From the sequence record PV287714.1: a stretch of DNA of 64,000 nucleotides; one strand, written 5' to 3'. This document shows, in pieces, positions 5,847 through 60,348 of this stretch. Every line of letters begins with the position of its first letter. The first letter of the stretch is position 1. The notes under the pieces are model-generated. The model was not told the origin of the DNA and ran no database searches. It saw nothing but the letters and a program-made list of their open reading frames with translations. The DNA is from Escherichia phage HMD-9. The position numbers were made by a program, and so were the translations under genes.

Positions 5847-5922
5847 TGGTCGAGGCAGTAGGGGTCGAACCTACGACCTAGGACTTAGAAGGTCCTTGCT
5901 CTTCCTTCTGAGCTATGCCTCG
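5847..5922 (-). tRNA. tRNA-Arg (anticodon UCU)
   Basis: cloverleaf by hand: acceptor CGAGGCA/TGCCTCG, D-arm GCTC..GAGC, anticodon loop CTTCTAA, T-arm GTAGG-TTCGACC-CCTAC, CCA encoded. Confidence 0.85.
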
Positions 5923-5926
5923 GATT

Positions 5927-6001
5927 TGGCGGACATGCATGGATTCGAACCATGGACCAATTGATTAACAGTCAACTGCTCTACCACTGAGCTACACATC
6001 C
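5927..6001 (-). tRNA. tRNA-Asn (anticodon GUU)
   Basis: acceptor GGATGTG/CATGTCC (two G-U pairs), D-arm GCTC-AGTGGTA-GAGC, anticodon loop CTGTTAA, T-arm CATGG-TTCGAAT-CCATG, CCA encoded. Confidence 0.75.
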
Positions 6002-6005
6002 AAAT

Positions 6006-6092
6006 TGGTGGGGAGTGATGGAGTCGAACCACCCGAGTCGCAATGACAATGGATTTACAGTCCACACCGCTACCTCTACGGGATAACTCCCC
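6006..6092 (-). tRNA. tRNA-like gene, probable type-II tRNA-Tyr (anticodon GUA) with irregular D-arm
   Basis: acceptor GGGGAGT/ACTCCCC, anticodon stem-loop TGGA-CTGTAAA-TCCA, long variable arm, T-arm GGTGG-TTCGACT-CCATC, CCA encoded; D-arm pairing is non-canonical. Confidence 0.5.
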
Positions 6093-6101
6093 TAATTAAT
6101 T

Positions 6102-6176
6102 TGGTGGCCCTGGGTGGAATTGAACCACCATCTGGCGATTATGAGTCGCTTGCTTGAACCTTCCAGCTACAGGGCC
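6102..6176 (-). tRNA. tRNA with anticodon CAU (Ile2/lysidine type by T4 position; Met not excluded)
   Basis: acceptor GGCCCTG/CAGGGCC, anticodon loop CTCATAA, T-arm GGTGG-TTCAATT-CCACC, CCA encoded; 1 nt from tRNA-Thr. Confidence 0.8.
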
Positions 6177-6177
6177 T

Positions 6178-6253
6178 TGGTGCTGATTGACGGAATCGAA
6201 CCGCCGACCTTCTCATTACAAGTGAGTTGCTCTACCTACTGAGCTAAATCAGC
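6178..6253 (-). tRNA. tRNA-Thr (anticodon UGU)
   Basis: acceptor GCTGATT/AATCAGC, D-arm GCTC-AGTAGGTA-GAGC, anticodon loop CTTGTAA, CCA encoded. Confidence 0.85.
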
Positions 6254-6258
6254 AAAAC

Positions 6259-6348
6259 TGGCGGAGGCGATAGGATTTGAACCTATGAGTCGCCGGAGCG
6301 ACTGCCGGTTTTCAAGACCGGTGCATTAAACCACTCTGCCACGCCTCC
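6259..6348 (-). tRNA. tRNA-Ser (anticodon UGA), type II
   Basis: acceptor GGAGGCG/CGCCTCC, anticodon loop CTTGAAA, long variable arm, T-arm ATAGG-TTCAAAT-CCTAT, CCA encoded. Confidence 0.85.
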
Positions 6349-6350
6349 AG

Positions 6351-6424
6351 TCTCCGTGGCAGGATTTGAACCTGCGACATTCTGCTCCCAAAGCAGACGC
6401 TCTACCAAACTGAGCTACACGGAG
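6351..6424 (-). tRNA. tRNA-Pro (anticodon UGG)
   Basis: acceptor CTCCGTG/CACGGAG, D-arm GCTC-AGTTTGGTA-GAGC, anticodon loop TTTGGGA, T-arm GCAGG-TTCAAAT-CCTGC; CCA not encoded; 2 nt from tRNA-Ser. Confidence 0.85.
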
Positions 6425-6434
6425 TAAATTAAAT

Positions 6435-6508
<74 letters not shown>

Positions 6509-6513
6509 AAATT

Positions 6514-6600
6514 TGGTGCGAGAAGTGGGACTCGAACCCACAAGGAAATCATTCCGCAGCATTTTAAGTGCTGTGCCTTTACCAATTTGACCATTCTCGC
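6514..6600 (-). tRNA. tRNA-Leu (anticodon UAA), type II
   Basis: acceptor GCGAGAA/TTCTCGC, anticodon stem-loop CAGCA-CTTAAAA-TGCTG, long variable arm, T-arm GTGGG-TTCGAGT-CCCAC, CCA encoded. Confidence 0.85.
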
Positions 6601-6601
6601 G

Positions 6602-6674
6602 CTGGGAATAAAGGACTCGAACCTTTGCATCTAGCAGTCAAAGTGCTATGCCTTACCAACTTGGCTAATTCCCA
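6602..6674 (-). tRNA. tRNA-Gln (anticodon UUG)
   Basis: acceptor TGGGAAT/ATTCCCA, anticodon stem-loop TAGCA-CTTTGAC-TGCTA, T-arm AAAGG-TTCGAGT-CCTTT; CCA not encoded; 1 nt from tRNA-Leu. Confidence 0.85.
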
Positions 6675-55858: not shown

Positions 55859-55862
55859 CAAT

Positions 55863-55892
55863 GGGGACCTTTCGGTCCCCATATTTTTATTT
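55863..55892. terminator. bidirectional terminator between convergent gene 54 and the alt-upstream ORFs
   Basis: GGGGACC-TTTC-GGTCCCC followed by ATATTTTTATTT on plus; GAAA loop on the minus transcript. Confidence 0.6.
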
Positions 55893-56177
55893 ACGGAATG
55901 AAATAAAAGCAGCAACTGAAGCAACTAAACTGTCTTCAATATAAACTTCAATTTTTACCGGAGCTTCTGACTCAAATTTACCTGTTACTACACCTTGGAA
56001 AATACTTTCAGTCTGTTCTGGCTTTGAAAAATTTTCAGAAGGAAAAATTCCGAACTTTTTATCTGTTCCAAAAATTTTGATAAATTCATCATAAACTGCT
56101 TCATTAAAAGCATTATCAGCAGGAATAACGCCTTCAACTACAAGTTCTTGACCTAAAAAGCGCAAAGAAGATTTCAT
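55887..56177 (-). CDS. hypothetical protein (alt.-3 position)
   Basis: 96 aa ORF downstream of the alt fragments. Confidence 0.5.
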   Translation of the reverse strand: MKSSLRFLGQELVVEGVIPADNAFNEAVYDEFIKIFGTDKKFGIFPSENFSKPEQTESIFQGVVTGKFESEAPVKIEVYIEDSLVASVAAFISFRK

Positions 56178-56209
56178 TTTGTGTTCCTCATGTTATGTCA
56201 GTAAGATTA

Positions 56210-56413
56210 CTATAACACAACATGAGGGACTTGTAAACTACATTTTGAACTTTTTAGTACGCGTAATAGGCATGCGTCGATTTTATACTGTTTCATTGTT
56301 TGAAGAGCAGTATCAAAAACAGCATTAATGACACCAATTGGATTTCCACCCATGTTTTTAAGCTTAACTAATGATAGTTTCTCATTAACACCTATCATTA
56401 CGATATGCATCAT
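56210..56413 (-). pseudogene. alt N-terminal duplicate, distal fragment (homologous to Alt residues about 65-120)
   Basis: MMHIVMIGVNEKLSLVKLKNMGGNPIGVINAVFDTALQTMKQYKIDACLLRVLKS aligns with Alt MMHIVPFTLTAKGSIAKLKGLGPSPINYINSVFTVAMQTMRQYKIDACMLRILKS. Confidence 0.6.
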
Positions 56414-56595
56414 TTTATCGCCCGGCTTAACGTTTTATTCGTATCACCGCCAGAGGTGTATGTACAAAATCTAAATCCAGGAAGCACACTTTCTTCACCG
56501 GCTTGAATAGCAAAAATTTGAGGTATTTTATGCTTAGGATTTAAGTTAACAACCGGCGCCGAAGCGCCGTCAAATAATTCTGTAATAAGTTCCAT
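56410..56595 (-). pseudogene. alt N-terminal duplicate, proximal fragment (homologous to Alt residues about 2-60)
   Basis: MELITELFDGASAPVVNLNPKHKIPQIFAIQAGEESVLPGFRFCTYTSGGDTN aligns with Alt MMELITELFDENTTLPITNLYPKKKIPQIFSVHVDDAIEQPGFRLCTYTSGGDTN; frame breaks exactly at the MMHIV junction. Confidence 0.6.
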
Positions 56596-56598
56596 GAT

Positions 56599-58647
56599 TT
56601 ATCCTTGAACAAACTTGTAAGGCATGTTTGCAATATCTATGCAAGACGCAATAATTCCAAGAGATGATTCTGCTTTCTGTTTAACATTTGATGAAACAAA
56701 CGATGCAAAGTCAACTCTATCTTCTATATCACCTGTCATTGTAACCAATTCACCAGTTTCCATTAAACGGTCACCGTCATAAATTACCGATTCGGTGAGT
56801 TCTTCTGTGGTCATAACTTCAGCTTGAATAAGCTTGTTGTTAGTTCTAATTGTTCCATCGTTGTAAGATGCATCAGTTATTTTATTAACTTTGACCATTA
56901 ATCCACGTGGCAAAATGACTTCCATTTCATTTGAAGGCGCTAAACTTCCACCGGGTAAAACAACATTGACCTTATCAGCCCCAGTAATAACCCATCCAAT
57001 TCCAACTAAATTATCGCTAGAATTTACAAGTCCTTCATCAGTTTTATCAATAGAAACACTTAAACGCTTTTCGTCTGGTAAAACACCCACAGATGAATCA
57101 GTCATCCAAGTACCAAAAATATTTGGATATAATGATGTTGACACAAAGTTTCTAAAATAAAAAACTCGATTTTTTACCATTGCTTCGTATATTGAAGGTA
57201 ACATTCGTTGTGAACGATACAAAGTAATACCTTTTGGTAATCGTTCACCATTTTTAAAGGCTGAATCTAAATTATCAATGGCTTGTTCTATTTCAGGTGC
57301 TGTTAAAATACTTGTACGCTCATCTGGATTATATAATCCCAAAAGAGCATTATTCATGTCTACATATCCTGAACCTACATATTCACGAATTCCGCGTTTT
57401 TGCGCTGGTGTGTATTTAGATGAATCTTTATTTTCGACTATAGGATGTAATGACCATCCAGCGGTAAGAGCATATCCACGTAATTCTCTTCGAATAATCT
57501 TTGTTTTTATTGCATTCCAAGAATTTTGTACTAACTCATTTGCAGCATCTTGGTTTAAATGCGAATGTCTGTTAATATTTCTTTCAAACCAAGCACCTTT
57601 ATATTTTTCTAAAGTATCATCGACGATAGAAGCAATAGTTTCTAAAGTTTTTATTGAAGTAATAGATTCTTTTCGTAATTTTTCTAAAGCTTTATTTTTT
57701 ATTTCTGCATTAATAATGGATTCTTTATCTTCAGGAATTATAGAAGCTTCTCTGAATGCCATCCCAGCTGTAACACTGCTAAGAGCATTCTCTAATGCAA
57801 ATCCTGAAGTAGAAATAACAGTTAATTCGTTAGCATCAGAAATTAAAGGCGCGTCGGCGGGTTTATTTAATTCTGCTGCTGAAGCCTCAAATTTTTGAAA
57901 CATTGGTGTTTCAAATCTAGAAGATTCCAATGACTGACTTTGTGCAATTGCTCTACGGGAAATTTTAACTTTAACAATAACAGCTTGGTCAGAACGCTTA
58001 TCATTTTCTTGCGCAATAGATGCAGCAATTGCCTCATTTTTAGTTACTTGAGCTCCAGTATCTTTATTGATATAAACATCACCGACCTTCGATTCAACTT
58101 TAGTAAAGAGCTCGGTGCTAATTTCCGGAACTCCTGGAATGTCTTCTAGTGATACATTTTTGCGATGTATAAGAATATATGCATACTTTTTATCGTAATC
58201 CCAGAGTTCCTTAAGAAGGACGTATCTGCCGCCTGAACGACTGCGGATAAGTCTATCAGCAATAACTTGAATTTGTCGAGCTTGACCAGCAGTTTTAGAC
58301 TTAAGAATACGAAGCATGCAGGCATCAATTTTATACTGACGCATCGTTTGCATCGCAACAGTAAAAACTGAATTGATGTAATTAATTGGGCTTGGACCGA
58401 GACCTTTTAATTTAGCAATTGAACCTTTAGCAGTTAATGTAAAAGGAACGATGTGCATCATTTTATCGCCCATCTTTAAATCACGGTTAGTATCACCTCC
58501 AGATGTATAAGTACATAAACGAAAGCCTGGTTGTTCTATTGCGTCATCAACATGAACTGAAAAAATTTGTGGTATTTTCTTCTTTGGATACAAATTTGTA
58601 ATCGGAAGAGTAGTATTTTCGTCAAATAATTCTGTAATAAGTTCCAT
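56599..58647 (-). CDS. alt: Alt ADP-ribosyltransferase (packaged, injected)
   Basis: 682-683 aa (tandem ATG at 58650/58647); size and position upstream of gene 30 match T4 alt. Confidence 0.88.
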   Translation of the reverse strand: MELITELFDENTTLPITNLYPKKKIPQIFSVHVDDAIEQPGFRLCTYTSGGDTNRDLKMGDKMMHIVPFTLTAKGSIAKLKGLGPSPINYINSVFTVAMQTMRQYKIDACMLRILKSKTAGQARQIQVIADRLIRSRSGGRYVLLKELWDYDKKYAYILIHRKNVSLEDIPGVPEISTELFTKVESKVGDVYINKDTGAQVTKNEAIAASIAQENDKRSDQAVIVKVKISRRAIAQSQSLESSRFETPMFQKFEASAAELNKPADAPLISDANELTVISTSGFALENALSSVTAGMAFREASIIPEDKESIINAEIKNKALEKLRKESITSIKTLETIASIVDDTLEKYKGAWFERNINRHSHLNQDAANELVQNSWNAIKTKIIRRELRGYALTAGWSLHPIVENKDSSKYTPAQKRGIREYVGSGYVDMNNALLGLYNPDERTSILTAPEIEQAIDNLDSAFKNGERLPKGITLYRSQRMLPSIYEAMVKNRVFYFRNFVSTSLYPNIFGTWMTDSSVGVLPDEKRLSVSIDKTDEGLVNSSDNLVGIGWVITGADKVNVVLPGGSLAPSNEMEVILPRGLMVKVNKITDASYNDGTIRTNNKLIQAEVMTTEELTESVIYDGDRLMETGELVTMTGDIEDRVDFASFVSSNVKQKAESSLGIIASCIDIANMPYKFVQG

Positions 58648-58670
58648 CATATCCTCTCTAGTGTTTATTC

Positions 58671-58678
58671 TATTTATA
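58671..58678 (-). promoter_or_regulatory. T4 late promoter TATAAATA for alt
   Basis: reverse-complement TATAAATA about 20 nt upstream of the alt start. Confidence 0.5.
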
Positions 58679-58701
58679 AAATTAAAGGCCCGAAGGCCTT
58701 T
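58674..58701 (-). terminator. UUCG hairpin AAAGGCC-UUCG-GGCCUUU at the end of ORF 58700-58888
   Basis: 7-bp stem with UUCG loop on the minus transcript, overlapping the stop codon and followed by an A/U-rich tract. Confidence 0.5.
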
Positions 58702-58888
58702 AATAATCTAATGGTAAGAGAGTACGATATATTTCAAACTTTGGCCCTTTTTCATAGGCATCAAATGTTTCTGAAAATTTATTATAAGCATATGCATCTA
58801 CAAATTCGAGAATGATTTGTGATACAGAAGTAGAAACATCTCCACCTTCTTTTTGAGCAACGACAATTGTTTCTAAGTAAGCTTTCAT
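58700..58888 (-). CDS. hypothetical small protein, ATGA-coupled to DNA ligase
   Basis: 62 aa ORF. Confidence 0.5.
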   Translation of the reverse strand: MKAYLETIVVAQKEGGDVSTSVSQIILEFVDAYAYNKFSETFDAYEKGPKFEIYRTLLPLDY

Positions 58889-60348
58889 AGACCAGTTACC
58901 TCATGAAAATCACCAAATACATCCTCGAATGTATTAGCTTTAGTTTTATCTTCACGTAAACGAATCGCAATCGGAAGAAATAATTTAACGTAATCAGTGC
59001 GGCCATCAGATTTTAACCAACCATTGCATTCGCACTCTAGAATTTTTCCAATATAATAATTTTGGTTTTCCATAATGCGAGTACGGTCAAGTTCATGCGA
59101 TTTTACACCGGCTTTATCTTTTAAGCCTGAACCAGCATTTACTTTAATTTTTCCACACTCTGACTCAAGAATAAATCCACCTGCTTTAGTAGGGTCTTTA
59201 CGGTGAGGATAAATTCCTACAATTTTTAAATCAACATCAATTACTTCTTTAAATTTATAGAGATTTTTTGAACGAGCATTTTCCCATAATCCATCGATAT
59301 TTTTGAGAATAATACCTTCAAGACCTTGGTCAATATACTTTTTATAAATTACCTTAGCTTCATCTAGGTTATTTACTACCTGGTTTTCAATTAAAATTAC
59401 TTTATCATAGCCTGATGTCATTTGTTCTAGTTTAGAAAAACGTACATCATATTTCAAACGAAATGCAGGAAGACCGTATATTTCTACCAACGGGACATAA
59501 TCCCAGACCTGAAACTTCATGCATTGAGCTTCTTTTTCAGAAATGGTTCCCTTTAAAGATTTATTGGCGATGCCATTAGATGCAGTACGTGATTCAGCTA
59601 CTTCTGTGAAGTCTTTAACTTTGCTGTTTCCAGGATGAGCATCAAAAAGAAAATCTAGGCCTTCTGGCTCCTTTTTAACTTGCTCGTGGTATACCAATTC
59701 GCCATCAATTAACACACCTTCTGGATGAATCTGGCGGGCTTCAGCAGTCATTTTGATTAACTCTTCCTTAAGAAGATCTAATCCTAGATATTCATTACCA
59801 GCTCGTGATAAAAGACGAACATCATCTAATTCATCACCTCGGACTTCAGCAAAACACCGAGCTCCATCTGCTTTTAACTGTGCAAAGGCTGGAAACTTAA
59901 TATTCTTATTAATGCCTTTTTCATCATAAGAACTTGCCAGCATTTGAGGTTGTTCAGGAATTAAACCTGGCCAAACTTTGTTTGCAATAGATACTGAAGC
60001 ACCGCATTCAAGGTCTCGCATCATAACTCGACGCAAAACTTCAACATCATCCTTTTTACCATCAGTGATATATCCAGTCAATTCCTCAATTGCAGCATTT
60101 CCAGTCAATTTCCGAGTAGCTAATGTGAATTCAATGAAGTCAAGCATATCGGTAAGAGTCAACATTCCAAAACTCTGGGTAGTAATACCAGGTTTAGGCC
60201 ATTTCTTGATATAATACTGCAACCCACGAGAATAAGTCAGACGATATACTCGTTTAAGCAATTCATTATCTTTATTCTTTTCAAGAATTGCTTGCTTCTG
60301 CTTAGTTGAACCAATAGATGCTATTTCGTTCAGAATTTTAAGAATCAT
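58885..60348 (-). CDS. 30: gp30 ATP-dependent DNA ligase
   Basis: 487 aa; adenylation lysine motif KADGAR; size matches T4 gp30. Confidence 0.95.
   Translation of the reverse strand: MILKILNEIASIGSTKQKQAILEKNKDNELLKRVYRLTYSRGLQYYIKKWPKPGITTQSFGMLTLTDMLDFIEFTLATRKLTGNAAIEELTGYITDGKKDDVEVLRRVMMRDLECGASVSIANKVWPGLIPEQPQMLASSYDEKGINKNIKFPAFAQLKADGARCFAEVRGDELDDVRLLSRAGNEYLGLDLLKEELIKMTAEARQIHPEGVLIDGELVYHEQVKKEPEGLDFLFDAHPGNSKVKDFTEVAESRTASNGIANKSLKGTISEKEAQCMKFQVWDYVPLVEIYGLPAFRLKYDVRFSKLEQMTSGYDKVILIENQVVNNLDEAKVIYKKYIDQGLEGIILKNIDGLWENARSKNLYKFKEVIDVDLKIVGIYPHRKDPTKAGGFILESECGKIKVNAGSGLKDKAGVKSHELDRTRIMENQNYYIGKILECECNGWLKSDGRTDYVKLFLPIAIRLREDKTKANTFEDVFGDFHEVTGL

Follow-up and report, generated by a model that had tools for sequence, protein, structure and literature searches.

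The alt.-1/alt.-2 pair of a T4-like Escherichia phage: very probably a decaying remnant of a second alt-like ADP-ribosyltransferase gene

Immediately downstream of alt in the genome of Escherichia phage HMD-9 (record PV287714.1, of which a stretch of 64,000 nucleotides, here called the window, was analysed) two short open reading frames follow one another on the minus strand, and their translations, put end to end, look like the beginning of Alt itself. The question this arrangement raises is whether the two are small genes in their own right, perhaps with some role connected with Alt, or whether they are what is left of something larger. The answer favoured here, which we hold to be very probable, is that the region once held a second, full-length gene for an alt-like ADP-ribosyltransferase, of which a non-functional and neutrally decaying remnant survives. 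The window comes from a T4-like phage (Tequatrovirus): over a stretch of 2.9 kb the identity is 96.8% to phage T4 and 99.8% to Escherichia phage Pu-Krd-SF4, and almost all of the ~530 phage records that match this stretch are T4-like. The alt region likewise has 96.8% nucleotide identity to that of T4, and the alt product carries the Pfam domain ADPrib_exo_Tox at residues 375-615 (E = 2.4e-33). Gene 54, on the plus strand, is convergent with the minus-strand alt group. The positions of all relevant features are collected in Table 1.

Table 1 Positions of genes, signals and lesions at and around the alt.-1/alt.-2 locus of the window.
Feature	Position	Strand	Basis or remark
Stem-loop, perfect 9-bp stem, in the gene 54/alt.-3 gap	55861-55882	both	terminator-like match; terminator annotated in G10400
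alt.-3, 96 aa, DUF5498	55887-56177	-	Pfam PF17602, E = 1.4e-64; conserved downstream synteny anchor
Promoter-like site, sigma-70/T4-early type, under the alt.-2 tail and upstream of alt.-3	56209-56237	-	best site in scan, 10/12 matches
alt.-2 ORF, 67 aa	56210-56413	-	old codons 62-116, then 12 out-of-frame codons from the old 3' end and intergenic sequence
Old TAG stop of the intact second alt, now out of frame within alt.-2	56238-56240	-	intact C-terminus ...SKKFKM*; alignment
Lesion 2: sole remaining copy of the 9-bp direct repeat CTAAAAAGT, junction of the 1699-bp deletion	56249-56257	-	repeats and BLAST overlap
ATGA overlap, alt.-1 stop and alt.-2 start	56410-56413	-	TGA 56410-56412, ATG 56411-56413; second ATG next
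alt.-1 ORF, 61 aa	56410-56595	-	old second-alt codons 1-54, then 7 out-of-frame codons and TGA
Lesion 1: A4 run (A5 in 10/10 intact copies)	56433-56436	-	G10400 alignment, AATAAAAACG to AATAAAACG; A-run lengths in 32 genomes
alt, functional packaged ADP-ribosyltransferase, 683 aa as read	56599-58650	-	ORF; paralogue that the fragments resemble
Shine-Dalgarno-like AAGGA, 6 nt ahead of the alt.-1 ATG	56602-56606	-	sequence reading; also precedes the G10400 intact gene
T4-type late promoter motif TATAAATA, just upstream of alt	58671-58678	-	exact motif match
62-aa ORF	58700-58888	-	ORF map
DNA ligase gene 30	58885-60348	-	ORF map

The ORF map has both reading frames on the minus strand where an earlier description, made from the letters of the DNA and referred to below as the sequence-only reading, had placed them, and the central claim of that reading, namely that the pair resembles the first 120 or so residues of Alt, holds well. 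In BLASTP comparisons with the adjacent Alt the 61-aa ORF is identical at 35/57 positions over Alt residues 2-58 (E = 6e-23) and the 67-aa ORF at 33/55 positions over residues 64-118 (E = 3e-21), which is about 60% identity in either case, while the two ORFs match the PHROG profile phrog_802 (Alt-like ADP-ribosyltransferase) at positions 2-59 (E = 8e-19) and 64-120 (E = 2.5e-19) respectively. With E values such as these from both approaches, the likeness to Alt is real and far beyond chance; pairwise alignment with Alt was the comparison on which the sequence-only reading had staked its proposal, and the similarity proves significant for each fragment. The N-terminus of alt.-1, MELITELFD, is identical to that of Alt. 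Missing from both fragments is the ADP-ribosyltransferase catalytic domain (PF03496, ADPrib_exo_Tox), and neither gave any family match in Pfam; no sequence relative of Alt itself was found in the PDB. The way in which the two frames meet had also been described correctly, in that the TGA ending the first and the ATG opening the second share bases as ATGA, and another ATG follows, as can be read directly from the DNA.

These ORFs are the T4 genes alt.-1 and alt.-2 (UniProt P39495 and P39494), a comparison that the sequence-only reading had already proposed and that is now settled on the grounds of locus, junction, frameshift and near-identity. The position between alt and alt.-3, the lengths of 61 and 67 aa, the ATGA overlap, the A4 frameshift and the deletion junction are all shared, and over 421 nt the region has 97.4-97.9% nucleotide identity to T4 records. 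T4 differs by point changes only, amounting to 2-3 residues per protein: in alt.-1 the window has N at residue 17 where T4 has T, and a tail of SRAIK for NQAIK, while in alt.-2 it has M for L at residue 21 and H for R in the tail. The families phrog_23015 and phrog_15247 give full-length matches to the ORFs (E = 1.7e-46 and 2.7e-48). The T4 products go under the names [quoted passage not shown], and in several deposited genomes the pair are named as hypothetical proteins or as “ADP-ribosyltransferases”. That the two derive from alt is not new, however. In the T4 reference record the pair are said to [quoted passage not shown], and a stop codon is mentioned, the GenBank note for T4T says that the pair [quoted passage not shown], and Nolan et al. 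2006 (PMC1524935) place alt.-1/alt.-2 among paralogous duplications of adjacent genes, in this case of alt; in view of these sources the finding must be regarded as already known. What is added here is the exact nature of the lesions, the recognition of the whole gene as the unit of duplication, and population evidence of neutral decay. The proper label for the pair would in our view be that of a pseudogene remnant of a second alt paralogue.

The intact form of this second paralogue is found in phage vB_EcoM_G10400, where a 685-aa “putative ADP-ribosyltransferase” lies between alt and the alt.-3 homologue, at exactly the position of the pair in the window. It is 41% identical to the window Alt over its full length, and has an ADPrib_exo_Tox domain at residues 413-620 (Pfam). 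The same protein of 685 aa (QBO63712.1 in G10400, BBF63359.1 in T2, “alt.-2” in RB68, gp193 in KRT47) is encoded at the same locus and in the same orientation, with the same start codon and ribosome-binding site; the AAGGA now in front of alt.-1 was once the ribosome-binding site of the second alt. Alt of T4 (the packaged NAD+:arginine ADP-ribosyltransferase, with PF03496 and a place in phrog_802) has the MELITELFD start in common with the fragments and is about 60% identical to them over residues 1-118, unlike them has a catalytic domain, and is the older paralogue; since the two full-length paralogues are only 41% identical, their duplication is old. In one record the second Alt-like enzyme is described as “distinct from gp46 and T4 Alt”. 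Among the intact paralogue's PHROG matches, those to phrog_26651 (376 positions), phrog_23966 (117) and phrog_9935 are to families of partial Alt-like proteins, and the existence of such separate families may mean that fragmented alt-like genes are common in phages.

Among relatives of this phage it is the intact paralogue that is the rule. The 1.6 kb lost here from the middle of the gene can be found, at 94-100% identity, in 402 phage records (presence being counted at a coverage of at least 80%), whereas the 421-nt remnant finds an end-to-end match, corresponding to the T4 arrangement, in about 90 of 494 records; the others match its first 352 nt only, as is expected of intact copies. Intact genes are thus the majority state, in ~400 of ~494 related records, including those of T2, RB68, AR1 and phiD1 among others, and both T4 and the window carry a minority deletion allele. 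A scan of IMG/VR anchored on Alt.-3 yielded 5 loci only (2 intact, 2 deleted and 1 on a truncated contig), so that the diversity discussed below was taken from 24 individual GenBank loci. As a separate observation on coordinates, an intact second Alt-like gene lies at 939-2996 of locus L002 and in about 400 other phage records, its counterpart in the window being deleted at 56249-56257. Intact and decayed alleles coexist within one genus, and T4 itself is without an ADP-ribosyltransferase for which most phages related to it have the gene.

Comparison with the intact copy defines two lesions precisely. A 501-nt stretch of the window, running from the end of alt through the two ORFs to the start of alt.-3, aligns to G10400 in two segments. 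The first, at 97% identity, runs from the end of alt into the second gene, of which it covers the first ~345 nt, and is interrupted by a single 1-nt gap, while the second, at 98% identity, comprises the last 20 nt of the gene and the downstream flank; the two overlap by exactly 9 nt of the query, and these 9 nt are CTAAAAAGT. In intact genes this 9-mer occurs at nt 340 and again at nt 2039, a spacing of 1699 bp, and a 9-nt overlap between segments together with repeats 1699 bp apart is the typical trace left when a deletion has taken place between short direct repeats. What the 1699-bp deletion took is codons 117-682 and with them the whole catalytic domain, residues 413-620 of the intact paralogue falling inside the deleted segment. 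Beyond the junction the reading frame of alt.-2 continues by accident, its last 12 residues (SKCSLQVPHVVL) being out-of-frame read-through.

The 1-nt gap in the first segment is the other lesion, the loss of one A from a run of five, which shifts the frame at codon 54-55. The lost A sits 20 nt upstream of the TGA/ATG overlap, so that the last 7 residues of alt.-1, TLSRAIK, are read out of frame where the intact protein has NVKPGDK. After them the shifted frame hits a TGA that overlaps the inherited Met62-Met63 codons, and alt.-2 restarts there in the original frame; its ATG is simply the in-frame Met62 codon of the intact protein (...GDKMMHIV...) and not a newly evolved start. The sequence-only reading had the frame breaking exactly at the MMHIV junction, and this needs some adjustment: it is at that point that the ORFs overlap, but the G10400 alignment puts the break itself at the 1-nt deletion further upstream. 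A similar adjustment applies to the claim that the N-terminal region of Alt had been duplicated and then interrupted. There is indeed a second copy of alt, but the N-terminus was not copied as a unit; the whole gene was duplicated, and it is the 1699-bp deletion that left the N-terminus behind.

The history suggested by these comparisons would begin with a full-length second alt between alt and alt.-3, as in most Tequatrovirus phages. In the lineage of the window a deletion between the two 9-bp repeats would then have removed codons 117-682, probably by replication slippage or illegitimate recombination, and at some later time a slip of one nucleotide in the A5 run would have broken up what was left of the 5' part, giving two ORFs, one of 61 and one of 67 aa. 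If this is right, the locus offers a clean and datable case of gene loss in a phage, begun by a microhomology-mediated deletion and carried further by homopolymer slips and nonsense mutations, although its significance beyond careful annotation is small.

Whether the products have nevertheless been maintained can be judged from variation among genomes sharing the deletion, for which 22 deletion-state sequences (19 distinct) were compared with 10 intact-state ones (9 distinct), the window and T4 being included. The deletion junction is identical in 22/22 deletion-state genomes, implying that the deletion happened once. The A4 run is found in 20 of these 22, while SYGD1 and SG1 keep A5, and SYGD1 has one fused ORF of 128 aa; given that these two have the deletion and yet retain A5, the most parsimonious order has the frameshift following the deletion, with which the T4T note agrees. 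Further damage is frequent. A GAA to TAA change creates a stop at codon 6 of alt.-1 in 11/22 deletion-state genomes, and a T5 to T4 frameshift shortens alt.-2 to 39 aa in 3/22; alt.-2 has its full length in 17/22. Single cases are a 9-nt deletion in FN, a frameshifting slip of the junction A-run in F25 and the loss of the stop codon in ACG-C40. Several genomes were chosen for an odd match length, which inflates the frequency of indels but leaves that of the codon-6 stop, which was not a criterion of choice, unaffected.

Substitutions tell the same story. Over the 114 shared codons, private variants in the deletion state comprise 12 nonsynonymous and 1 nonsense against 4 synonymous, a ratio of 3.25 to be set against 3.54 nonsynonymous sites per synonymous site, whereas in the same codons of the intact copies there is 1 nonsynonymous against 33 synonymous (Fisher p = 6e-8 for the difference), these tallies being of variant types rather than of events on a tree, with recombination with intact copies evident from shared polymorphisms. 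In the alt.-2 half there are 3 private substitutions, all nonsynonymous, a number so small that the test has little power for alt.-2 alone. Neither ORF product is under detectable selection, and the pattern of substitution looks neutral. Of the two possibilities left by the sequence-only reading, that of a decaying duplicate or pseudogene is therefore the one borne out, by the intact paralogue at the locus in most relatives, the two lesions, the further nonsense mutations and frameshifts and the neutral-looking substitutions, while the other, that small proteins are expressed that compete with or modulate Alt, finds no comparative support.

That transcripts and peptides may still be made from the region is a separate matter. 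The late promoter motif upstream of alt probably drives a transcript through alt into the remnant, there being no terminator-like site in a scan of the minus strand from alt through the remnant to alt.-3, in which case the ORF pair would be a passive 3' extension of the alt transcript with no mechanism of its own. For alt.-1, translation to a short peptide may start from the old ribosome-binding site. The second frame has no Shine-Dalgarno sequence, so that a start there would be possible only through coupling at the ATGA. With both ORFs open in the window, a good Shine-Dalgarno for alt.-1 and coupling possible at ATGA, both peptides may be made. In a T4 time course (PMC9697503, Table S2) the class given to both transcripts of the pair is “middle” and that given to the proteins “NA”, meaning not detected, while Alt.-3 was detected; proteins as small as 6-7 kDa are often missed by shotgun proteomics, so that this non-detection is weak evidence if taken alone. 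The same table has T4 alt.-3 as early both as RNA and as protein, which fits the promoter-like site under the tail of alt.-2, where TTTACA and TATAGT are separated by a 17-nt spacer (56237-56209) with a TG ahead of the second hexamer; in the record of phage Lutter a promoter is annotated at the position of this site.

The alternative with most in its favour is that the fragments are kept as functional small proteins, Alt.-1 alone or together with Alt.-2 modulating Alt packaging or competing with it, which might come about by Alt.-1, consisting as it does of the Alt N-terminal propeptide and the first ~50 residues, entering the prohead core or binding partners of Alt. N-terminal propeptides cut by the prohead protease gp21 end in a consensus (L/I)-x-E cleavage motif. 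This the beginning of Alt.-1 (MELITE-LFD) fits in a manner identical to Alt, a resemblance that is one of sequence only. The propeptide that gp21 removes from the N-terminus of Alt in head maturation is of 7 residues (PMC9026906), and N-terminal targeting sequences send other internal proteins into T4 heads (PMC9026906; PMC9958956); reviews of head assembly give Alt propeptides at both N- and C-termini, and in these reviews a packaging signal for Alt is not defined. Taken with the good Shine-Dalgarno, the ATGA coupling, the detection of T4 transcripts and the fact that the ORFs are open in both the window and T4, such points are what speaks for the idea. Against it stand the stop at codon 6 in half of the deletion-state genomes and the truncation of alt.-2 in three of them, the mostly nonsynonymous private substitutions, the non-detection of the T4 proteins, and the accidental, out-of-frame origin of the C-terminal residues of both ORFs; moreover, with ~80% of relatives having the intact gene instead, any such role would have to be lineage-specific and recent. 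Overall this seems very unlikely, and we are still more doubtful of the specific version of it in which, in phages such as this one with alt.-1 still open behind its old ribosome-binding site, a 61-aa Alt.-1 made late in infection enters the prohead core, or titrates a docking site of Alt, by way of its propeptide region, though were it true, a gene remnant would be modulating the amount of Alt enzyme that is packaged and injected.

It has also been suggested that the two ORFs might be joined, by programmed ribosomal frameshifting, into a single N-terminal Alt-like protein of 128 aa. The +1 shift originally proposed does not suit the geometry, as one base has been lost and rejoining the frames therefore needs a shift of -1. 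For the latter the junction, A AAA UGA, is not unsuitable, in that the P-site lysine tRNA might move back by one base onto AAA with the stop in the A site, setting the ribosome on AUG AUG CAU, and SYGD1 naturally has the fused ORF. The A-run is nonetheless inherited coding sequence (GAT AAA ATG), present in intact copies too, rather than an evolved slippery site; the fold of 56330-56425 on the minus strand has an MFE of -17 kcal/mol (z = -0.79), and of 200 shuffled sequences 48 gave a fold as stable or more so. The ORFs on either side are not conserved, given the frequent closure of the upstream one and the occasional truncation of the downstream one, and the fused product would still be without a catalytic domain. 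Programmed -1 frameshifting was rejected on account of the inherited run, the lack of significant downstream structure and the closed upstream ORF in half of the relatives, and we consider it extremely improbable. As for the split being an error of sequencing or assembly, the real gene being a single ORF, a change of 1 nt in homopolymer length is of course a common type of error, but the A4 run recurs in 20 of 22 independently sequenced deletion-state genomes, among them several T4 records, as against A5 in 10/10 intact copies, and even without the frameshift the 1699-bp deletion would leave only a 128-aa stump. This was rejected as well, its probability being extremely small.

Some minor observations concern the surroundings of the pseudogene remnant. 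Three plus-strand ORFs of 33-49 aa lying in or across it (56179-56328, 56328-56474 and 56405-56506) were judged to be antisense chance ORFs. The alt ORF as read in the window starts with two methionines (MMELITE..., 683 aa), while the T4 alt CDS is of 2049 nt, or 682 aa, and annotated alt CDS lengths in relatives range from about 2049 to 2226 nt; differences of this kind between records indicate that the choice of start codon for alt is inconsistent. In the close relative Pu-Krd-SF5 (locus L019, 122527-123411) alt is annotated as a CDS of 885 nt only, with two “Alt-like” features lying under the match, so that the primary alt of that phage may also be split. Elsewhere in the window, at 5847-6674 on the minus strand, there is a cluster of tRNA genes, 10 in number (Arg-tct, Asn-gtt, Tyr-gta, Met/Ile-cat, Thr, Ser, Pro, Gly, Leu and Gln). 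T4 has 8 in a table published in Virology Journal in 2006, and by comparison the Asn and Tyr tRNAs are apparently extra in the phage of the window.
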